10,412 nt of DNA, taken from NCBI RefSeq assembly GCF_003334255.1, contig NZ_QOWU01000084.1; one strand, written 5' to 3'. Made by a program: the position numbers and the translations under genes. This stretch comes from Escherichia coli. Its GTDB lineage: Bacteria > Pseudomonadota > Gammaproteobacteria > Enterobacterales > Enterobacteriaceae. Below the pieces are notes generated by a model that saw only the letters and a list, made by a program, of their open reading frames with translations, was not told the DNA's origin and did no database searches. Positions 1 through 10,412 of the stretch are shown here, one piece after another (within the stretch, counting starts at the first letter, position 1; each line of letters starts with the position of its first letter).

Positions 1-86
1 AATCGGTGGAGCTGCATGACAAAGTCATCGGGCATTATCTGAACATAAAACACTATCAATAAGTTGGAGTCATTACCGAATTTATT

Positions 87-425
87 ATGAGTTCAGAGCG
101 AGATCTGGTTAATTTTCTTGGCGATTTTTCAATGGATGTGGCCAAAGCAGTTATAGCCGGTGGTGTTGCAACCGCTATTGGAAGTCTGGCTTCTTTTGCC
201 TGTGTTAGCTTTGGCTTTCCAGTAATTCTTGTCGGAGGAGCAATTTTACTGACAGGGATAGTGTGTACAGTTGTTTTAAATGAAATCGATGCTCAATGCC
301 ATTTATCAGAAAAATTAAAATATGCAATTAGAGATGGACTAAAACGGCAACAGGAACTTGATAAATGGAAAAGGGAAAACATGACTCCATTTATGTATGT
401 TCTTAACACTCCACCCGTGATATGA
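87..425 (+). CDS. yafU: Small inner-membrane protein of unknown function (YafU-like, 112 aa); two predicted Gly/Ala-rich transmembrane helices
   Basis: ATG at 87-89 with GGAG at 66-69 upstream; ORF of 112 aa; hydrophobic stretches VAKAVIAGGVATAIGSLASFACVSF and FPVILVGGAILLTGIVCTVVL; very AT-rich codon usage; length and position match my recollection of K-12 yafU (symbol from memory, not searched). Confidence 0.65.
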   Translation: MSSERDLVNFLGDFSMDVAKAVIAGGVATAIGSLASFACVSFGFPVILVGGAILLTGIVCTVVLNEIDAQCHLSEKLKYAIRDGLKRQQELDKWKRENMTPFMYVLNTPPVI

Positions 426-434
426 GGATTAACC

Positions 435-914
435 ATGCGTTTACATGTTAAATTAAAAGAGTTTCTTTCGATGTTTTTTATGGCCATATTATTTTTCCCT
501 GCATTCAATGCTTCTTTGTTTTTTACCGGAGTTAAACCTCTATATTCAATAATAAAATGCTCCACGGAAATATTTTATGATTGGAGAATGTTGATTCTGT
601 GCTTCGGTTTCATGTCGTTTTCCTTTTTAAATATTCATGTAATTTTACTTACGATAATAAAATCATTCTTAATCAAAAAAACGAAGGTAGTCAATTTCGC
701 CACAGACATAACAATACAGCTAACTCTTATATTTTTACTAATAGCTATCGTAATAGCACCTTTAATAGCTCCTTTTGTCACAGGATATGTCAATACTAAT
801 TATCACCCCTGCGGTAATAATACGGGAATTTTCCCAGGAGCAATCTATATTAAAAATGGCATGAAATGTAATAATGGATATATTTCTCGCAAGGAAGATT
901 CAGCAGTTAAATAA
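435..914 (+). CDS. ykfM: Small polytopic membrane protein of unknown function (YkfM-like, 159 aa)
   Basis: ATG at 435-437 preceded by GAGGA (424-428), which overlaps the yafU stop (TGA 423-425), so the two look translationally coupled; about four hydrophobic segments; extremely AT-rich with many rare codons (ATA, TTA, AAT); TAA stop at 912-914. Confidence 0.6.
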   Translation: MRLHVKLKEFLSMFFMAILFFPAFNASLFFTGVKPLYSIIKCSTEIFYDWRMLILCFGFMSFSFLNIHVILLTIIKSFLIKKTKVVNFATDITIQLTLIFLLIAIVIAPLIAPFVTGYVNTNYHPCGNNTGIFPGAIYIKNGMKCNNGYISRKEDSAVK

Positions 915-1016
915 TTAAATATTCTAAAACAAACAGTTTTTAACTCCGGATTCCATGTCCTTTCTTGCACTGTCTTTGTCAAGAAAAATTTCTTATGCAA
1001 AGAATTTTGTATTATT

Positions 1017-1038
1017 GCCGCCAGAAATTCCTGGCGGC
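1017..1038. terminator. GC-rich hairpin (8-bp perfect stem GCCGCCAG / CTGGCGGC, 6-nt loop) between convergent ykfM and yafT; putative bidirectional terminator
   Basis: Seen directly: gccgccag-aaattc-ctggcggc embedded in AT-rich DNA, 13 nt beyond the yafT stop and about 100 nt beyond the ykfM stop. The flanking A/T runs are imperfect, so intrinsic termination is uncertain. Confidence 0.35.
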
Positions 1039-1050
1039 AGATATAATTTA

Positions 1051-1836
1051 TTATTGATAGCGGTTAACCAAATCTTTTACCATCGCTTTATAGGTCTTTT
1101 GCTTAAGTTGCATGATTTGCTGCTCTGTCATATCAGTCGTACTGGCTTCATTCTTGTCGGGCAATGGTGGAAGCACTTTATATTCATAATTCACCGGCGA
1201 CCAGGTAGCCCACTCACCTGTTGCCACATCCACCAGCGTGAAACGTACCAGGTAGCGCAGGGAGATAGCGTCAGTGAGTTTGTCATTTTTATAGTCGGAC
1301 CATACTGTTGATTTCAGCGCAGAGTCATATTTTCCTGTCTGCAACATATCCTGGTAAACAATAATCGCTTTCTGATGTCCTTTTGCAGCCACAAAACGCA
1401 GTGCCTGCATCCAGTTCATATTCTCAGCACTGGCAACATCCTCGTTCTCATTTTTATCTTTGTTTTTGTTACAAGTCAGAGGCTTTTGCCTGTCCGGGAT
1501 ACCAGAGAATGTGGAAACAGTATAATATTTTCGCATCTCCTCCTGCATAATGGTTTCCGGTGCGCGGTTGCCGGATTGAACAAGTATTACAGGAGAATTA
1601 AGGGGAACGCGGAACTCATCTCCATCAAGCGCAGCTTGAATATCCTCTTCGGATACGGCCAGAGTGGTTTCATTACCGAATAAATCTTTGTCTGTCAGTT
1701 GCTGGGGAGTGTTTTTATTAATATTACTTTGTGTGACTTGAGCTTTTTTCTTCTTTTCATCAATAGAAGATTCAGAGGCACATCCTGCAAGCAGCGAGAA
1801 TAACACACATATGCAACAAAGCTTTTTTGAATTCAT
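1051..1836 (-). CDS. yafT: Lipoprotein YafT (261 aa), probably outer-membrane anchored; function unknown
   Basis: ATG at 1836 (plus-strand 'cat' 1834-1836) with GAGGGAG Shine-Dalgarno upstream on the minus strand; signal peptide [19 protein letters not shown] with lipobox LAGC; Ala at +2 after the Cys suggests Lol sorting to the outer membrane; lower GC than the core genes to the right. Confidence 0.8.
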
Positions 1837-2103
1837 AATTGGACACTCCCTCGCCTGTCATAATGATTAGAATATTTAGCATTGATAACGGACTCTAATT
1901 ATATACCTCACTTAAATAATAACAAACAAAATCAATTTGAAATATACATTCATTTAATCAATATAAATTTATTCTCTAGAAATATATTTAAGCTGAATGG
2001 TTCGATATCATTATTGAATTTTAATGAATGAGACAACAAGCGAGAATCACGCACCTACGCCAGAGTAAAATCATTGAACAGAGAAATGGTGGAATTCAAA
2101 TAC

Positions 2104-2133
2104 AAAAAAACCGCAAAATTAAAAATCTTGCGG
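2104..2133 (-). terminator. Rho-independent terminator downstream of tRNA-Asp (aspV)
   Basis: Minus-strand transcript reads GCCGCAAGAUUUUUAAUUUUGCGG followed by 7 U (plus-strand A run 2104-2110); stem of about 9 bp with one mismatch, starting about 30 nt beyond the tRNA 3' end. Confidence 0.6.
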
Positions 2134-2163
2134 CTCTCTGAACTCATTTTCATGAGTGAATAG

Positions 2164-2240
2164 TGGCGGAACGGACGGGACTCGAACCCGCGACCCCCTG
2201 CGTGACAGGCAGGTATTCTAACCGACTGAACTACCGCTCC
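2164..2240 (-). tRNA. aspV: tRNA-Asp (anticodon GUC), 77 nt, CCA encoded
   Basis: Reverse complement of 2164-2240 is GGAGCGGTAGTTCAGTCGGTTAGAATACCTGCCTGTCACGCAGGGGGTCGCGGGTTCGAGTCCCGTCCGTTCCGCCA, which matches the E. coli tRNA-Asp sequence; anticodon loop CUGUCAC. Identical to the copy at 10167-10243. Confidence 0.97.
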
Positions 2241-2268
2241 GCGTTGTGTTCCGTTGGGAACGAGGCGA

Positions 2269-2297
2269 ATATTACGGATTGCCTCGACCTTCGTCAA
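2269..2297 (-). promoter_or_regulatory. Sigma70-type promoter for aspV: -35 TTGACG (2292-2297), 17-bp spacer, -10 TAATAT (2269-2274), GC-rich discriminator
   Basis: Minus strand reads ccgTTGACGaaggtcgaggcaatccgTAATATtcgcctcg; consensus-like hexamers at optimal spacing, about 22-30 nt upstream of the tRNA 5' end; an upstream A-tract (gagaaaaacc) resembles an UP element; the GC-rich discriminator is typical of stringently controlled stable-RNA promoters. It lies in the dnaQ 3' flank. Confidence 0.5.
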
Positions 2298-2372
2298 CGG
2301 TTTTTCTCATCTTTTGAATCGTTTGCTGCAAAAATCGCCCAAGTCGCTATTTTTAGCGCCTTTCACAGGTAT

Positions 2373-3104
2373 TTATGCTCGCCAGAGGCAACTTCCGCCT
2401 TTCTTCTGCACCAGATCGAGACGGGCTTCATGAGCTGCAATCTCTTCATCTGTCGCAAAAACAACGCGTAACTTACTTGCCTGACGTACAATGCGCTGAA
2501 TTGTTGCTTCACCTTGTTGCTGTTGTGTCTCTCCTTCCATCGCAAAAGCCATCGACGTTTGACCACCGGTCATCGCCAGATAAACTTCCGCAAGGATCTG
2601 GGCATCGAGTAATGCCCCGTGCAGCGTTCGTTTACTGTTATCTATTTCGTAGCGAGCACATAACGCATCGAGGCTGTTGCGCTTACCGGGAAACATTTTC
2701 CTCGCCACCGCAAGGCTATCGGTGACCTTACAGAAAGTATTGGTCTTCGGAATATCGCGCTTAAGCAACGAAAACTCGTAGTCCATAAAGCCGATATCGA
2801 ACGCTGCGTTATGGATCACCAACTCCGCGCCGCGAATATAGTCCATGAACTCATCGGCTACTTCGGCAAACGTGGGCTTATCGAGCAAAAATTCATCGGC
2901 AATACCATGTACGCCAAAGGCTTCCGGATCCACCAGCCGATCGGGTTTGAGATAAACATGGAAGTTATTGCCCGTCAGGCGACGGTTCACCACTTCAACG
3001 GCACCAATCTCAATGATCTTGTGGCCTTCATAGTGCGCACCAATCTGGTTCATACCGGTGGTTTCGGTATCGAGAACGATCTGGCGTGTAATTGCAGTGC
3101 TCAT
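2373..3104 (-). CDS. dnaQ: DNA polymerase III epsilon subunit (3'-5' proofreading exonuclease, DEDDh family), 243 aa
   Basis: Translation contains Exo I LDTETTG, Exo [11 protein letters not shown] and Exo [13 protein letters not shown] motifs and the C-terminal region; start placed at the ATG giving MSTAITRQ (243 aa). An in-frame ATG three codons upstream (3113, MTAMST...) is the ORF-track start and cannot be excluded from sequence alone. Confidence 0.93.
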
Positions 3105-3168
3105 AGCGGTCATTTATGTCAGACTTGTCGTTTTACAGTTCGATTCAATTACAGGAAGTCTACCAGAG

Positions 3169-3636
3169 ATGCTTAAACAGGTAGAAATTTTCACCGATGG
3201 TTCGTGTCTGGGCAATCCAGGACCTGGGGGTTACGGCGCTATTTTACGCTATCGCGGACGCGAGAAAACCTTTAGCGCTGGCTACACCCGCACCACCAAC
3301 AACCGTATGGAGTTGATGGCCGCTATTGTCGCGCTGGAGGCGTTAAAAGAACATTGCGAAGTCATTTTGAGTACCGACAGCCAGTATGTCCGCCAGGGTA
3401 TCACCCAGTGGATCCATAACTGGAAAAAACGTGGCTGGAAAACCGCAGACAAAAAACCAGTAAAAAATGTCGATCTCTGGCAACGTCTTGATGCTGCATT
3501 GGGGCAGCATCAAATCAAATGGGAATGGGTTAAAGGCCATGCCGGACACCCGGAAAACGAACGCTGTGATGAACTGGCTCGTGCCGCGGCGATGAATCCC
3601 ACACTGGAAGATACAGGCTACCAAGTTGAAGTTTAA
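3169..3636 (+). CDS. rnhA: Ribonuclease HI (155 aa)
   Basis: ATG at 3169 with AGGAAG at 3153-3158; translation [23 protein letters not shown]... carries the RNase H catalytic residues (TDGSC Asp, MELMAA Glu, STDSQY Asp, C-terminal His/Asp). The ORF-track N-terminal extension (from 3058) would run back across the dnaQ start and has no ribosome-binding site. Confidence 0.95.
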
Positions 3637-4355
3637 GCCTGTGGTTTACGACATTGCCGGGTGGCTCCAACCGCCTGGCGAATTCGTGGCTTGTTTTTAC
3701 TCTGTTTCATCGGATTTAGCGTTAAAGGAATAGTCCGTTTCCGGGCAACAATAAGTTGTAAGCAACCAAGCGCAGGAATATGCGCATTCAATAGTTTTCC
3801 TCCGTGTTTGTTCCACGGGAGAACGTGGAAACGGCTGGCGTGTAGCACTTCAAAATTCAACAAAGAGAGCCAGTCCAGCTGCCGCATCAGAGTAAACATC
3901 CGGCTGTTATAGGGCGAGGTTTTGCGCAATACCGGCACAAGTTTGCGTAATCCCATAAAACTGATGGGATTGAAGCCACTAATGACCAGCCAGCCATCAT
4001 CAATCAATACCCGATCGGCTTCACGCAATAAACGATGCGGATCGGTGCACCACGGCAATGTATGTGCCAGTAGACAAACATCAACGGATTTATCGGCAAA
4101 AGGAAGATGAAGTGGGTCCGCCTGTACCTGGACGGGCATTCCTTGCGCAGAAACATTCACTTGATGAGAAACCGCGCACGCTTCGCAATTGATTTCTGCG
4201 CTTAAATTGCCAATCTTAAGCAGATGAAAACCATACATTTTAGTGAACCACGGGTTGAGCTGGCGCTCCAGCGCCTTGCGATAAAGCTTTCCCCAGGGCA
4301 AATCGCCCCAGCAATCAGGAGCCACGACAGTTTGAGGGACTCTTGCCGGTTTCAT
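3633..4355 (-). CDS. yafS: Class I SAM-dependent methyltransferase-like protein YafS (240 aa), with a degenerate Gly-rich loop
   Basis: ATG at 4355 (plus 'cat' 4353-4355) with GGAAGG Shine-Dalgarno on the minus strand; the ORF-track start at 4373 is a GTG six codons upstream. Motif II/III-like segment [17 protein letters not shown]...[20 protein letters not shown]. The 3' end overlaps the rnhA stop by 4 bp. Confidence 0.85.
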
Positions 4356-4385
4356 CACAACCTTCCGTTTCACACTGAGAGGTAA

Positions 4386-5144
<759 letters not shown>

Positions 5145-5154
5145 TAAAACTTTC

Positions 5155-5183
5155 TTGTCATCGGCTCCGTTCGCCGTTATGAT
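5155..5183 (+). promoter_or_regulatory. Candidate sigma70 promoter for mltD: -35 TTGTCA (5155-5160), 17-bp spacer, -10 TATGAT (5178-5183)
   Basis: Seen directly in the 71-bp gloB-mltD intergenic region; good hexamers at consensus spacing, about 33 nt upstream of the mltD ATG. Not validated. Confidence 0.35.
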
Positions 5184-5215
5184 CGGTCGTCTTTTAAGCA
5201 ACTATTGACACACAC

Positions 5216-6574
5216 ATGAAGGCAAAAGCGATATTACTCGCCTCTGTCCTGCTCGTGGGTTGCCAGAGTACCGGCAACGTTCAACAGCACGCACAGAGCC
5301 TTTCTGCAGCTGGTCAAGGGGAAGCAGCAAAGTTTACAAGTCAGGCACGATGGATGGACGATGGGACGTCTATCGCGCCAGATGGTGACTTGTGGGCTTT
5401 CATTGGCGACGAGCTAAAGATGGGAATTCCGGAAAATGACCGGATTCGCGAACAGAAACAGAAATATTTACGCAATAAGAGCTATCTCCACGATGTAACT
5501 TTACGGGCAGAGCCGTATATGTACTGGATAGCAGGGCAAGTTAAAAAACGTAACATGCCTATGGAACTGGTACTACTACCCATAGTGGAGAGCGCTTTTG
5601 ATCCTCACGCAACGTCTGGCGCCAATGCCGCAGGCATCTGGCAGATCATTCCGAGCACGGGGCGCAATTATGGTTTGAAACAGACCCGCAATTATGACGC
5701 GCGTCGCGATGTTGTTGCTTCAACAACTGCCGCGCTGAATATGATGCAGCGTCTGAACAAAATGTTTGACGGCGACTGGCTTCTGACCGTAGCGGCTTAT
5801 AACAGCGGCGAAGGTCGGGTCATGAAGGCAATTAAAACGAACAAAGCGCGTGGGAAATCCACGGACTTCTGGTCGTTACCGTTGCCGCAGGAAACGAAGC
5901 AGTACGTGCCTAAAATGCTGGCATTGAGTGATATTCTCAAAAACAGCAAGCGTTATGGCGTACGTCTGCCAACGACCGATGAAAGCCGTGCTCTGGCGCG
6001 TGTGCACCTGAGCAGCCCGGTTGAAATGGCGAAGGTAGCAGATATGGCGGGGATTTCCGTCAGCAAGCTGAAGACATTCAACGCTGGCGTAAAAGGCTCC
6101 ACGCTGGGCGCAAGTGGCCCGCAGTACGTGATGGTGCCAAAGAAGCATGCAGATCAACTGCGTGAATCTCTGGCTTCAGGCGAAATTGCTGCTGTACAGT
6201 CGACGCTGGTTGCCGACAATACGCCGCTTAACAGCCGTGTTTACACCGTACGCTCTGGCGACACGCTTTCAAGTATCGCTTCACGTCTCGGCGTAAGCAC
6301 CAAAGATTTGCAGCAGTGGAACAAACTGCGCGGATCTAAGCTGAAGCCAGGCCAAAGTTTGACGATTGGTGCAGGCAGTAGCGCACAGCGACTGGCAAAC
6401 AACAGCGATAGCATTACGTATCGTGTGCGCAAAGGCGATTCGCTTTCAAGCATTGCTAAACGCCACGGCGTGAACATCAAAGATGTGATGCGCTGGAACA
6501 GCGACACTGCGAATCTGCAACCAGGCGATAAGCTGACGTTGTTTGTGAAAAACAACAACATGCCAGATTCCTGA
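5216..6574 (+). CDS. mltD: Membrane-bound lytic murein transglycosylase D (lipoprotein; SLT catalytic domain plus two C-terminal LysM domains), 452 aa
   Basis: Signal peptide with lipobox MKAKAILLASVLLVGC; transglycosylase motifs LPIVESAFDP (catalytic Glu) and AAYNSGEG; two LysM repeats (YTVRSGDTLSSIASRLGVSTKDLQQWN and YRVRKGDSLSSIAKRHGVNIKDVMRWN); TGA stop at 6572-6574. Confidence 0.95.
   Translation: MKAKAILLASVLLVGCQSTGNVQQHAQSLSAAGQGEAAKFTSQARWMDDGTSIAPDGDLWAFIGDELKMGIPENDRIREQKQKYLRNKSYLHDVTLRAEPYMYWIAGQVKKRNMPMELVLLPIVESAFDPHATSGANAAGIWQIIPSTGRNYGLKQTRNYDARRDVVASTTAALNMMQRLNKMFDGDWLLTVAAYNSGEGRVMKAIKTNKARGKSTDFWSLPLPQETKQYVPKMLALSDILKNSKRYGVRLPTTDESRALARVHLSSPVEMAKVADMAGISVSKLKTFNAGVKGSTLGASGPQYVMVPKKHADQLRESLASGEIAAVQSTLVADNTPLNSRVYTVRSGDTLSSIASRLGVSTKDLQQWNKLRGSKLKPGQSLTIGAGSSAQRLANNSDSITYRVRKGDSLSSIAKRHGVNIKDVMRWNSDTANLQPGDKLTLFVKNNNMPDS
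6242..6500 (+). repeat. Intragenic tandem duplication within mltD encoding two LysM peptidoglycan-binding modules (about 80 nt each, roughly 180 nt apart)
   Basis: Nucleotide-level similarity between about 6242-6328 and about 6419-6500 (e.g. GGCGA(C/T)(A/T)CGCTTTCAAG(T/C)AT(C/T)GCT, GGCGT(A/G)A(G/A)CA(C/T)CAAAGAT, (T/G)GGAACA), giving near-identical protein repeats. Confidence 0.6.
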
Positions 6575-6584
6575 CAAACCAGAT

Positions 6585-6620
6585 AATAAAAAGGCACCGA
6601 TTCCCCCGGTGCCTTTTTTA
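6585..6620. terminator. Bidirectional rho-independent terminator between convergent mltD and yafE
   Basis: Perfect 8-bp stem AGGCACCG (6592-6599) / CGGTGCCT (6607-6614) with 7-nt loop, flanked by an A-run upstream (6585-6592) and a T-run downstream (6614-6619), so it can terminate either strand; lies between the mltD stop (6574) and the yafE stop (6622). Confidence 0.75.
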
Positions 6621-6621
6621 T

Positions 6622-7245
6622 TTATGCCGCTTTATGTGCATCTACCATGATGATATCACTGGTGAAAAAGCCATCATTCTGCAAGGCAAAATACGTTCTC
6701 ACCTCTGTCGATGCGCTCTGTTGGTAAATGCGAATAGCGTCTACTAACGCTTCTGGCGTACGCATTCTCGCGACCCATGAAGAAAATTCCAGCGGTAACT
6801 TATCTGTAATTAAATTATCAACTATCAGATTGGCTTCATTGATTAACGTCAACCACTCACCGCTGGCGTAGTTTCGTACGTGAGAGGTATCGCGTAATGC
6901 TTCTACCGTCTGTAACCAGATGTCGCGCACTGGGTGACCCGGAGACATTACGTCCATCACAATCAGCCTACCGCCAGGTTTCAATATCCTATTCACTTCT
7001 CGCAGTGCTGCACCAACATCATGCCAGTGATGGGCAGAATAACGGCTGATAACAATATCAAATGCGTTATCGGCAAATGGCAGACTTTCGGCATATCCCT
7101 GGCGGGTGGTGATATTTTTCAGTTGCCGGGCTTCGGCAGCTTGTGCCACGACATCCAGCATGTGGGCAGATAAGTCATACGCCACCACCGCGCTCACGTT
7201 TTGCGCAGCGCCAAACGTTGGTCTGCCCTGTGGCAGACCTGACAT
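6622..7245 (-). CDS. yafE: SAM-dependent methyltransferase-like protein YafE (207 aa); begins inside the canonical motif I region and lacks strand beta1
   Basis: ATG at 7245, only 3 nt after the yafD TAA stop (operon arrangement, same frame); class I methyltransferase motifs: post-I VVAYDLSAHML, motif II LPFADNAFDIVISRYSAHHW, motif III LKPGGRLIVMDV; no hh(D/E)hGxGxG strand is encoded upstream in any frame. Confidence 0.85.
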   Translation of the reverse strand: MSGLPQGRPTFGAAQNVSAVVAYDLSAHMLDVVAQAAEARQLKNITTRQGYAESLPFADNAFDIVISRYSAHHWHDVGAALREVNRILKPGGRLIVMDVMSPGHPVRDIWLQTVEALRDTSHVRNYASGEWLTLINEANLIVDNLITDKLPLEFSSWVARMRTPEALVDAIRIYQQSASTEVRTYFALQNDGFFTSDIIMVDAHKAA

Positions 7246-7248
7246 ACC

Positions 7249-8100
<852 letters not shown>

Positions 8101-8155
8101 CTACTGTTATAGGGATTTTAGCTCACTCTTTCAACGAGCAATTGTATATTGTTAT

Positions 8156-8171
8156 GTAAGCAAGTGCTTAC
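8156..8171. promoter_or_regulatory. Perfect palindrome GTAAGCA-AG-TGCTTAC in the yafD/yafC divergent intergenic region; candidate operator
   Basis: Seen directly: 7-bp inverted repeat with 2-bp spacer at 8156-8171, about 107 bp from the yafD start and about 119 bp from the yafC start, in a 240-bp region that must hold two divergent promoters. Confidence 0.25.
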
Positions 8172-8289
8172 ACCGGTCAGAATTTTGCTCATTATGGAGA
8201 ACATTAAATCGCATGACATATCACGCATCCTGATGGTTTAATGACAAATAAATTCAAAATATCTCTTCTATTTTGCAACAGGAGCAAAA

Positions 8290-9204
8290 ATGAAAGCCAC
8301 GTCGGAAGAACTCGCCATTTTTGTTTCGGTCGTCGAAAGCGGCAGCTTTAGCCGGGCAGCGGAACAATTAGGGCAAGCAAACTCAGCGGTAAGCCGGGCG
8401 GTGAAAAAGCTGGAGATGAAACTTGGCGTTAGCCTGCTTAATCGGACCACGCGACAACTTAGCCTGACGGAAGAAGGCGAGCGTTATTTTCGTCGCGTAC
8501 AGTCAATTTTGCAGGAGATGGCAGCGGCAGAATCAGAAATTATGGAGACGCGTAATACACCGCGTGGACTGTTACGGATCGATGCCGCAACTCCAGTGGT
8601 GCTGCACTTTCTGATGCCGTTAATTAAGCCTTTCCGTGAACGCTATCCGGAAGTCACTTTGTCGCTAGTCTCCTCCGAAACGATTATTAATTTGATCGAA
8701 AGAAAAGTGGATGTCGCGATACGCGCTGGTACGTTAACGGATTCCAGCTTACGTGCCAGGCCGTTATTTAACAGTTATCGAAAAATTATCGCCTCCCCCG
8801 ATTATATTTCCCGCTACGGGAAGCCAGAAACGATCGACGATTTAAAGCAACATATTTGCCTGGGATTCACTGAACCCGCTTCCCTCAATACCTGGCCGAT
8901 AGCCCGTAGCGATGGACAATTACATGAGGTGAAGTACGGTTTGTCATCCAATAGTGGGGAAACACTGAAACAGCTTTGCCTGAGTGGCAACGGGATTGCG
9001 TGTTTGTCCGACTACATGATCGACAAAGAAATCGCTCGCGGAGAATTGGTGGAGTTAATGGCAGATAAAGTGTTGCCAGTGGAAATGCCATTCAGTGCCG
9101 TCTATTACAGCGACCGTGCGGTAAGTACGCGCATCCGGGCTTTTATCGATTTCCTTAGCGAGCATGTAAAAACAGCTCCCGGAGGAGCTGTCAGAGAGGC
9201 TTAA
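8290..9204 (+). CDS. yafC: LysR-family transcriptional regulator (304 aa)
   Basis: ATG at 8290 with AGGAG at 8280-8284; N-terminal winged-HTH typical of LysR-type regulators ([56 protein letters not shown]), followed by a periplasmic-binding-protein-like effector domain; divergent from yafD-yafE. Confidence 0.9.
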
Positions 9205-10004
9205 TCCCATTCAGGAGCCAGACCTTCCGGGCTAACCAGGCGGTCGTTGCAATCCAGTGCGGCGATCGCTTTTTTATCTTCGGCATCAAGCTGTAAATTT
9301 TGTGCCTTAAGATTACTTTCCAGGTTTTTACGTTTAGTAGAAGAAGGAATTACTGAGTAACCTTCCCCCATAGCCCACGCCAGAATCACTTGTGCCGGAG
9401 TCGCATTGTGTTTAGCTGCGATACGAGCAATAACCTCATCTTTCAGGGCCTTACCATACGCCAGCGTCATATAGGAAGTAATATGGATGCCGTGCTGTTT
9501 AGCCCAGGCAACCACTTTACGGTTTTGCAGATAAGGAGAGAGTTCAATCTGGTTAGTAGCGATGTTTTCAGCACCAACAGCAGCAATCGCTTTTTCCATC
9601 AACGGGATCGTGAAGTTGGAAATACCGATCTCACGCGTCAGCCCTTGTTTTTTGGCTTCCAGCAGCGCCTGCATAAACTCTTCAACAGAGACTTCATCGT
9701 TTGGTGACGGCCAGTGGATTAGCGTCAGATCAACATAATCGGTACGCAATTTTTGCAGGCTCTCTTTCAGACTTGGGATCAATTTGTCTTTGCTGAGATT
9801 TTCAATCCAGATTTTAGTGGTGATGTAGAGTTCATGACGTGGCACGCCACTTTCTGCAATCGCCTGACCTACTGCGGCTTCGTTATCATAGATTTGTGCG
9901 GTATCAATTGCGCGATAACCAAGTTCAAGCGCCGTTATCACAGATGAAATAACAACGTCGTCTTTCAGACGGAAAGTACCTAAACCAAATGCAGGGATAG
10001 CCAT
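9201..10004 (-). CDS. dkgB: Aldo-keto reductase, 2,5-diketo-D-gluconate reductase B type (267 aa)
   Basis: ATG at 10004 with AAGAGG upstream on the minus strand; AKR catalytic tetrad context visible ([10 protein letters not shown] with Asp/Tyr, ITTKIW Lys, LIHWP His); NADPH-binding C-terminal region; stop overlaps the yafC stop within TTAA (9201-9204). Confidence 0.9.
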
Positions 10005-10126
10005 AATATGCCTCTTTTAATGCTATTTTCGTTAACTGAGGTGATTATGGGCTTCAGACTGTTGAGGAAAAAGAGCGTAAAATGCAGAGGATTTTTGCGA
10101 TTCTGGCAATAATAGATATACAGACG

Positions 10127-10154
10127 AAAAAAAACCTCGAGCGTTAACTCGAGG
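10127..10154 (-). terminator. Rho-independent terminator at the distal end of the rRNA operon (after tRNA-Asp aspU)
   Basis: Minus-strand transcript: CCUCGAG-UUAACG-CUCGAGG (7-bp perfect stem) followed by 8 U (plus-strand A-run 10127-10134), starting 13 nt beyond the tRNA 3' end. Confidence 0.75.
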
Positions 10155-10166
10155 CTTCTTAATAAG

Positions 10167-10243
10167 TGGCGGAACGGACGGGACTCGAACCCGCGACCCC
10201 CTGCGTGACAGGCAGGTATTCTAACCGACTGAACTACCGCTCC
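10167..10243 (-). tRNA. aspU: tRNA-Asp (anticodon GUC), 77 nt, distal tRNA of an rRNA operon
   Basis: Sequence identical to the copy at 2164-2240; sits 52 nt downstream (on the minus strand) of the 5S rRNA. Confidence 0.97.
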
Positions 10244-10295
10244 ACCGAATTCTTTTACAACCACCGGTTTTATGACCGGCTTACTGCTTAATTTG

Positions 10296-10412
10296 ATGCC
10301 TGGCAGTTCCCTACTCTCGCATGGGGAGACCCCACACTACCATCGGCGCTACGGCGTTTCACTTCTGAGTTCGGCATGGGGTCAGGTGGGACCACCGCGC
10401 TACTGCCGCCAG
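10296..10412 (-). rRNA. rrfH: 5S ribosomal RNA, partial (117 of 120 nt; the 5' three nucleotides lie beyond the window edge)
   Basis: Reverse complement of 10296-10412 matches E. coli 5S rRNA from GGCGGCAGUAGCGCGGUGGUCCCACCUGACCCCAUGCCGAACUCAGAAGUG... to ...GGGAACUGCCAGGCAU; the rrfH label rests on the neighbouring dkgB/yafC context (other rrn operons carry near-identical 5S genes). Confidence 0.95.

Follow-up and report, generated by a model that had tools for sequence, protein, structure and literature searches.

An AT-rich islet beside aspV

The window analyzed here is a 10,412-nt stretch of an Escherichia coli genome (assembly GCF_003334255.1, contig NZ_QOWU01000084.1) that corresponds to the aspU-aspV region, reversed with respect to K-12 coordinates. 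At its left end, between a fragment of IS1 and the tRNA-Asp gene aspV, lies an AT-rich islet with the genes yafU, ykfM and yafT, for which we propose an origin in a type VI secretion system (T6SS) island. RefSeq DNA of the K-12 type is 100% identical to the window over positions 78-3200, where it carries annotations for ykfM, the lipoprotein YafT, tRNA-Asp, dnaQ and rnhA. The features of the islet and of its two edges are as follows:

1..77, plus strand: right-hand end of an IS1 element that the window edge truncates, outside the islet proper
78..425, plus strand: 3' remnant of a larger gene, tme, containing the yafU open reading frame (ORF; 87-425, 112 aa)
435..914, plus strand: ykfM, an intact ORF of 159 aa
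1015..1040, between the convergent ykfM and yafT: GC-rich hairpin with a 10-pair stem (7 G-C pairs) and then an A/T-rich tail, a likely bidirectional terminator
1051..1836, minus strand: yafT, 261 aa, lipoprotein of family PF25851
1898..1925, minus strand: promoter-like site upstream of yafT (TTGTTA, 16 nt, TATAAT), proposed from its match to 10 of 12 consensus positions alone
2105..2139, minus strand: intrinsic terminator of aspV, a stem-loop and then a T-run, inside island-specific DNA
2157..2163: limit of the variable region on the right, some 6 nt from the 3' end of the tRNA (matches to empty sites begin at 2157/2158)
2164..2240, minus strand: aspV, tRNA-Asp(GTC), called by ARAGORN and Rfam, the core flank of the variable region

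A sequence-only reading of this DNA had described a sharp shift in base composition to the left of the aspV terminator, and this shift is real: GC content is 36.6% over 78-2163 versus 48.7% over 2164-10412, and a sliding-window profile (400-nt windows) gives 31-39% over 1-1200, 43-45% across the body of yafT and 34% over 1600-2200, with values right of aspV mostly at 46-55%. The preference for A/T-ending codons that it had reported for yafU and ykfM is evident from GC content at third positions (GC3), which amounts to 25.7% in yafU (overall GC 39.2%) and 28.7% in ykfM (30.6%), i.e., fractions of 0.26 and 0.29 compared to about 0.5 in dnaQ (GC 50.2%, GC3 53.0%) and rnhA (GC 50.4%, GC3 50.6%). 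The AT bias is thus strongest in yafU and ykfM, the putative effector/immunity cargo, and in two spacers (915-1050, 32% GC; 1837-2163, 30% GC), and is moderate in yafT (GC 42.7%, GC3 43.5%).

The edges that had been assigned to this islet (1-2135) require correction. On the left, bases 1-77/83 match DNA annotated as IS1 transposase in thousands of chromosomes and plasmids, homology to K-12-type genomes begins at base 78, and the IS1 end, which points toward yafU-ykfM, stops 9 bp upstream of the yafU ATG, so that these bases are not part of the islet; on the right, the variable region extends to about 2157-2163. The exact junction of IS1 and yafU is contiguous in none of the 5,426 complete E. 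coli genomes that served as our comparison set. IS1 occurs nearby in other strains at other positions, 27 bp further left in WEM25 and in the yafT-aspV spacer in D53-1.

Four arrangements of the yafV-aspV interval

Across the comparison set, to which all genome counts below refer, the interval between yafV and aspV occurs in four recurring arrangements, and most genomes carry a full or partial T6SS cluster there, in agreement with the earlier statement that aspV hosts large islands, including T6SS clusters, in other E. coli. In the first arrangement, a full or partial T6SS island, yafT is the gene adjoining aspV. Strain E28 has, in order, yafV, a transposase remnant, ISAs1, a small gene, Rhs, VgrG, Hcp and tssB...tssM, followed by VasL, Hcp, a 304-aa protein, ykfM, yafT (on the opposite strand) and aspV; the order yafV, ISAs1, Rhs, VgrG, T6SS core, VasL, Hcp, (304-aa protein), ykfM, yafT, aspV recurs in about 2,600 genomes. 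In the second arrangement the island is the same and the stretch from the last hcp to yafT holds other cargo: in O157:H7, genes for a 73-aa, a 198-aa and a DUF1311 protein occupy this slot (locus positions 18029-19377), for which an NCBIfam scan returned no usable match, and in an avian pathogenic E. coli (APEC) strain the slot is empty. The third, K-12-type arrangement, to which the window belongs, contains yafV, an ISAs1 remnant, the yafU fragment, ykfM, yafT and aspV, and the fourth is an empty site, in which 98 bp separate the yafV stop codon from aspV.

The spacer of the empty site is present in 766 genomes, and yafT with its spacer in 4,299. The 3' part of tme that corresponds to yafU was found together with ykfM in 3,083 genomes (2,974 at a coverage of at least 80%), and the 5' part of tme, which is absent from K-12, in 2,612 (2,574 at the same coverage). 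Neither of the two findings that the sequence-only reading had named as contradicting an acquired islet, a composition and codon usage like those of core genes or the universal presence of these genes at a site free of larger islands, was encountered.

D53-1 has a T6SS that is internally deleted yet retains an intact tme, and its YkfM and YafT accessions are identical to those of K-12. In its locus (1511-3521), a C-terminal fragment of Rhs is fused directly to a C-terminal fragment of TssM, and hcp-tme-ykfM-yafT is intact; judging from this structure, the Rhs/TssM junction is an independent internal deletion that would kill the T6SS. In strain E2 (locus 27266-41044), the aspV site is empty, and a T6SS-VgrG-Rhs-ISAs1 block adjoins a truncated dkgB and stands where aspU/rrnH normally lie, which suggests that an ISAs1-associated rearrangement moved or replaced the island.

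Deletion junctions and the tRNA flank

K-12 homology to the gene of the 304-aa protein, i.e., tme, starts at nt 559 of that gene (at about codon 187), and directly to the left of the yafU fragment K-12 carries an ISAs1 remnant that shares 97.9% identity over 280 nt with the ISAs1 copy at the yafV end of the E28 island, a copy that is frameshifted and hence near-complete, not intact. Because both K-12 end points lie inside genes that are complete or near-complete elsewhere, they argue for a deletion in the K-12-type lineage and not for an insertion in the others. As read from these junctions, the K-12-type state is the product of one deletion of roughly 30 kb, extending from inside ISAs1 to tme codon ~187. 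The hypothesis of an eroded T6SS island at aspV, with the islet as its stump, thereby gains support, one end of the deletion lying in ISAs1 and the other in a predicted effector gene.

Occupied and empty sites diverge from 13 nt before the yafV stop codon and from about 6 nt past the tRNA 3' end, and strains with an empty site have another terminator hairpin within their 98-bp spacer. With the boundary at 2157-2163, the aspV terminator itself belongs to island-specific DNA. The islet does lie immediately 3' of a tRNA gene, as noted beforehand; the hallmarks of integrase-mediated insertion are missing. No integrase is annotated in any arrangement of the interval, and when the 25-nt aspV 3' sequence was searched for in the fetched island loci, it was found in the aspV and aspU genes only; the direct repeat of the tRNA-Asp 3' end that had been suggested as a thing to look for further left is not present in these loci. 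We therefore describe the site as a tRNA-adjacent variable region and have dropped the notion of a classical integrase-borne tRNA island.

yafU as the 3' remnant of a predicted Tme effector gene

The yafU product corresponds to residues 193-304 of the 304-aa protein WP_000908071.1 of strain E28 and is 96% identical to its C-terminus; the yafU ATG is Met193 of that protein, whose gene in E28 directly follows hcp. In line with this, the Prokaryotic Genome Annotation Pipeline (PGAP) lists yafU as a pseudogene "missing N-terminus". The full-length protein has been assigned to a published family: Tme proteins are membrane-disrupting T6SS effectors with a C-terminal domain consisting of a DxxK motif, a transmembrane (TM) helix and a following Asp, and their immunity proteins (Tmi) were proposed to be DUF1240 or DUF1240-like proteins (Fridman et al. 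2020, PMC7046647), the sole paper to mention DUF1240 in the literature that we searched. Its Supplementary Data 5 (PMC7046647) counts WP_000908071.1 and its E. coli alleles among the Tme proteins and gives residues 122-277 as their domain (E ~1e-36 to 1e-37), an Hcp gene 43 bp upstream, and, 9 bp downstream, WP_001236645.1 or WP_001521857.1, each with three predicted TM helices.

The motif can be located: DxxK takes the form DVAK, at positions 209-212 in the full-length protein and 17-20 in YafU, and is followed by a glycine-rich hydrophobic stretch and by D260. In an alignment of eight homologues with identities down to ~35%, DVAK, P237 and D260 are invariant, and 11 of the 12 invariant columns (D205, M208, D209, K212, P237, D260, S266, K270, I273, P293 and L298) are identical in the YafU of the window; at the twelfth, E196, the aligner shifted YafU by one column, and the local SSERD equals that of E28. 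Since the window copy comprises residues 193-304 only, its Tme domain is incomplete.

The 304-aa protein has few homologues, from E. coli, from Salmonella (63% identity), from Rahnella (39%) and from some metagenomes, and their genomic surroundings are conserved. The Salmonella locus (with cargo at 8926-11010) contains ClpV, VasI, TssA, TssM, VasL, Hcp, the Tme homologue, a DUF1240 gene, two small ORFs, a second DUF1240 gene, YafT and dnaQ, so that the Tme gene, the two DUF1240 genes and the two small ORFs look like an immunity array. In Rahnella, the Tme homologue and a DUF1240 gene adjoin an orphan hcp, and Buttiauxella has Hcp, a Tme homologue (36%) and then three DUF1240-like genes. Hcp stands directly upstream of Tme in E. 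coli E28 and D53-1, Salmonella, Citrobacter and Buttiauxella. By motif and by hcp linkage, the full-length relative of yafU is thus a predicted Tme-family T6SS effector. We had also entertained the possibility that yafU is the tip of the Rhs protein encoded at the far end of the island, which was rejected because the orientation is wrong and the full-length homologue follows hcp and not rhs. Of the earlier description of yafU and ykfM as two small membrane proteins, the part concerning ykfM stands; yafU is not a complete gene but what is left of the 3' end of a predicted toxin gene.

ykfM as a predicted Tmi-type immunity gene

The YkfM protein of K-12 is WP_001236645.1, i.e., the very accession listed 9 bp downstream of E. 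coli Tme, and the same 9-bp gap separates yafU/tme from ykfM, on the same strand, in both the window and the full-length loci. YkfM has three hydrophobic segments, matching the three TM helices given by Phobius in the published table (PMC7046647). It is 51% identical (E=1e-47) to the DUF1240 protein encoded after the Salmonella Tme, five of its seven aligned homologues match PF06836, and an hhalign comparison of YkfM with DUF1240-positive proteins yielded a probability of 97.9% (E=6e-13, 142 columns); a direct Pfam scan of YkfM itself, which included DUF1240 (PF06836), was negative. A C-terminal motif, Y-x2-C...G...Y-x-K...C, is invariant across the alignment. YkfM is, by profile comparison, DUF1240-like and not a direct Pfam member, and we predict ykfM to be the Tmi immunity partner of Tme, now orphaned.

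As for the suspicion that the islet retains orphan envelope or immunity-like genes, its immunity-like part holds for ykfM, whose predicted Tmi type belongs with a published effector family; yafU, a predicted toxin remnant, is neither an immunity nor an envelope gene, and yafT, which encodes a T6SS-cluster lipoprotein, is not an immunity gene. Our literature search retrieved no paper linking ykfM to T6SS. In a 2025 study employing QMS-seq, a quantitative sequencing scan for mutations, ykfM was the most frequently mutated gene under three antibiotics, was guessed to encode a porin, and had its mutations clustered at a TM/cytoplasmic boundary (PMC11742677). The sole A7 run in ykfM (675-681) encodes IKKT at just such a boundary, and slippage or sequencing error is therefore a simpler explanation of these mutations than selection.

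yafT as the closing gene of T6SS clusters

YafT has a lipobox (LLAGC, Cys19) and is covered by a recently defined Pfam family, PF25851 (YafT); when YafU, full-length Tme, YkfM and YafT were run directly against Pfam and NCBIfam, no significant match emerged. We scanned one genome per species with a 14-sequence alignment of YafT, which produced 35 loci, and characterized their flanks by tblastn. In about 26 of the 31 informative loci, YafT is convergent to Hcp and/or to VasL-TssM-TssA-VasI, as seen in Escherichia, Citrobacter, Pseudocitrobacter, Lelliottia, Buttiauxella, Enterobacter, Trabulsiella, Phytobacter, Superficieibacter and Budvicia. Identities fall to 34-40% (Budvicia, Phytobacter), and most loci are not beside dnaQ. 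Anywhere from tens of bases to 4 kb separate hcp and yafT, as befits a cargo slot. Based on these contexts, we regard yafT as a conserved gene at the end of T6SS clusters that keeps this position independently of the chromosomal site, and not as an immunity gene.

YafT is a predicted outer-membrane lipoprotein. Among the fold neighbors of its structural model are LptE-, PelC- and CsgG-like lipoproteins, at sequence identities of 8-13%; YafT differs from these by a long additional helix at its C-terminus and by a disordered linker, and the likeness is one of fold only, giving no reason to assume a function in LPS, Pel or curli. An "aminopeptidase" label, common for YafT in databases, is unsupported, as there is no Pfam or NCBIfam peptidase match and the fold neighbors are non-enzymatic lipoproteins.

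Alleles of yafT fall into identity bands of ~99%, 90-95% and 80-90%. Those of the O157 and APEC types lose nucleotide homology left of ~1182 (window 1051-1182), and the last ~45 residues of their products resemble the E. fergusonii allele instead, indicating a recombination breakpoint inside yafT. Within K-12 yafT, beside the convergent ykfM, lies a peak of RpoS-holoenzyme binding determined by systematic evolution of ligands by exponential enrichment (SELEX; PMC5493296), and the transcriptionally silent extended protein occupancy domains (tsEPODs) that have been tested in K-12 include the yafT locus, where inserted reporters are strongly repressed (PMC4191405, PMC9561378). The AT bias of the cargo module and its spacers fits this silencing.

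Origin of the islet and alternative explanations

Taken together, we consider it likely, with a probability of roughly 85%, that window positions 78-2163 are the aspV-proximal end of an enterobacterial i1-type T6SS island, the rest of which has been deleted, with yafU a dead piece of tme, ykfM a tmi gene and yafT the gene of a lipoprotein that closes the cluster. What we observed directly is the gene order, where the deletion junctions lie, to which families the sequences belong and how the genes are spread across genomes; toxicity, immunity function, Hcp dependence and expression are inferred. The ancestral layout would have been yafV, ISAs1, Rhs immunity, Rhs, VgrG, Hcp, tssB...tssM, vasL, hcp, tme, tmi (ykfM), yafT (on the opposite strand) and aspV, from which a single deletion in the K-12-type lineage would have removed the whole secretion machine along with the 5' 60% of tme. 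In the window strain, IS1 would later have inserted 9 bp upstream of the leftover yafU ORF. In strains with an intact island, the T6SS probably delivers Tme, with the adjacent Hcp as its likely carrier, and Tme would depolarize the inner membrane of the target cell, where YkfM/Tmi may neutralize incoming Tme. Because only the immunity half is intact in the window, ykfM may act as an orphan immunity gene against tme-positive strains.

Several observations weigh against this reconstruction. Neither full-length YafU nor YkfM matches a Pfam or NCBIfam model directly, and hence the Tme call rests on the published table of position-specific scoring matrix (PSSM) hits and on inspection of the motif, and the Tmi call on transitive and profile-profile homology. 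At 304 aa, the protein is large for cargo of the Hcp lumen, and the literature searched contains no experiment on secretion or toxicity of an E. coli Tme or on protection by YkfM. Within 10 kb, five of the 31 YafT loci are free of T6SS genes, and YafT contexts in Citrobacter and E. fergusonii likewise have none nearby. The estimate of ~400-470 genomes with a truncated tme is the difference of two separate searches and not a genome-by-genome count. Finally, silencing of the locus in K-12 means that an orphan ykfM may not be expressed.

Three other accounts of these genes were considered. YafU preserves the conserved core residues of the toxin C-terminus (DxxK, TM segment and Asp) and starts at an in-frame ATG, and ykfM is intact in K-12-type genomes, all of which would be expected if the two genes formed an addiction-like module, the fragment still being toxic to membranes and ykfM being kept because its loss is lethal. 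However, YafU lacks residues 122-192 of a Tme domain that spans 122-277, no good Shine-Dalgarno sequence lies at the right distance before yafU, and the region is silenced in K-12, making such a module very improbable. We find it just as improbable that yafU and ykfM encode small membrane proteins that act on their own in housekeeping or under stress, for instance in tolerance of envelope stress or in porin-like permeability, and only happen to lie beside T6SS genes in other strains. Both are intact ORFs in the window, and the excess of ykfM mutations with its porin guess (PMC11742677) and the RpoS-holoenzyme peak in yafT beside ykfM (PMC5493296) could be cited in favor of such roles; but yafU matches residues 193-304 of a longer conserved protein colinearly and is annotated as a pseudogene by PGAP, the pair of Tme and DUF1240-like genes beside hcp recurs in Salmonella, Rahnella and Buttiauxella, a 159-aa alpha-helical protein with three TM segments is not porin-like, and slippage in the A7 run accounts more simply for the reported mutation cluster.

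The remaining account concerns the direction of change. The variable region begins within ~6 nt of the tRNA 3' end, and the aspV site carries islands in Salmonella too, as might be seen if the islet had been inserted independently by an integrase at the 3' end of tRNA-Asp, or if the K-12 state were ancestral and the T6SS had arrived later. However, none of the variants has an annotated integrase, none of the island loci repeats the tRNA 3' end, and both K-12 ends fall inside genes, the ISAs1 transposase gene and tme, that are complete or near-complete in other strains. Either form of this scenario is exceedingly unlikely, and the deletion of a resident T6SS island remains our preferred reading.

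With the islet so interpreted, a bolder combined proposal can be framed: that YafT is an unrecognized accessory outer-membrane lipoprotein of enterobacterial i1-type T6SSs (LptE/PelC-like, possibly ring-forming or channel-associated, and carried along with the Hcp/VasL end of the cluster in at least 10 genera) and that YkfM serves K-12-type strains as a working orphan immunity protein against the Tme of about half of E. coli. We put this forward tentatively, and rather doubt that both parts will hold at once.

Other features of the window

The far end of the window holds a second tRNA-Asp gene and part of a ribosomal RNA locus, both from the ARAGORN/Rfam annotation step:

10167-10243, minus strand: aspU, tRNA-Asp(GTC), called by ARAGORN and Rfam
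10298-10412: 5S ribosomal RNA

Between aspV and aspU, the 3' half of gloB (~4767-5144) is as AT-rich as ykfM (GC 34%, GC3 27%; 46% and 44% in the first half) and forms a second dip in composition, so that the islet is not unique in the window in this respect. At the yafE/yafD junction (6622-7249), yafE encodes 207 aa and abuts yafD, here as in K-12, and in O157, E28 and others it encodes 256 aa and a 77-bp spacer is present in addition. The longer gene and spacer elsewhere indicate that a deletion of ~221 bp took the 5' end of yafE here and in K-12; one RefSeq record labels yafE "missing N-terminus".

Significance and relation to known systems

The aspV/yafT T6SS island (PMC5422975, PMC4232414, PMC5363993) and the Tme/Tmi family, including its E. 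coli proteins in a supplement (PMC7046647), were already known. What is new is a well-supported annotation of three K-12 y-genes within known kinds, and no new kind of biology: yafU as a fragment of a dead Tme toxin, ykfM as a Tmi-type immunity gene and yafT as the gene of a T6SS-cluster lipoprotein. This has a practical side, in that recent work treats the ykfM product as an uncharacterized membrane protein and speculates about an antibiotic-resistance porin (PMC11742677). It would also explain the silenced, AT-rich domain encountered in studies of chromosomal position, and it makes YafT a candidate for a conserved accessory protein of the T6SS. If true, ykfM could protect K-12, which itself has no T6SS, against the Tme of roughly half of E. 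coli strains, and K-12 may thus resist a common T6SS toxin.

The closest described relatives of the E. coli pair are Tme1/Tmi1 and Tme2/Tmi2 of Vibrio parahaemolyticus (PMC7046647), which share with it the core of DxxK, TM helix and Asp, the upstream hcp, and the downstream multi-TM DUF1240-like gene. Unlike these, the effector in the window is cut to its last 112 residues, the T6SS is gone and only the immunity half is intact; moreover, YkfM has no direct DUF1240 Pfam match, and the E. coli pair is known from sequence. As to location, the i1-type T6SS island at aspV, called "T6SS/1" or "T6SS2" depending on the author (PMC5422975, PMC4232414, PMC5363993), occupies the same aspV/yafT-yafV interval with the same gene order and the same Rhs/ISAs1 far end. 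Compared to the intact island, the window lacks ~30 kb and retains just the cargo module and yafT.

Orphan T6SS immunity genes are familiar from the orphan immunity arrays of Vibrio cholerae and from the acquired interbacterial defense islands of Bacteroidales. Shared with these is the retention of an immunity gene without a working cognate effector or secretion system, and the extra DUF1240 array of Salmonella presents a further likeness. The difference lies in the route: ykfM would have been orphaned by deletion of the weapon in situ and not by acquisition of an immunity-only cassette, and its protective role is a predicted one. The yafT locus is, in addition, among the silent domains tested in work on tsEPODs and xenogeneic silencing (PMC4191405, PMC9561378), as fits AT-rich foreign DNA; those papers treat the locus as a feature of chromatin and do not identify the origin of its genes, for which a T6SS island, reduced to its aspV-proximal end, is here proposed.

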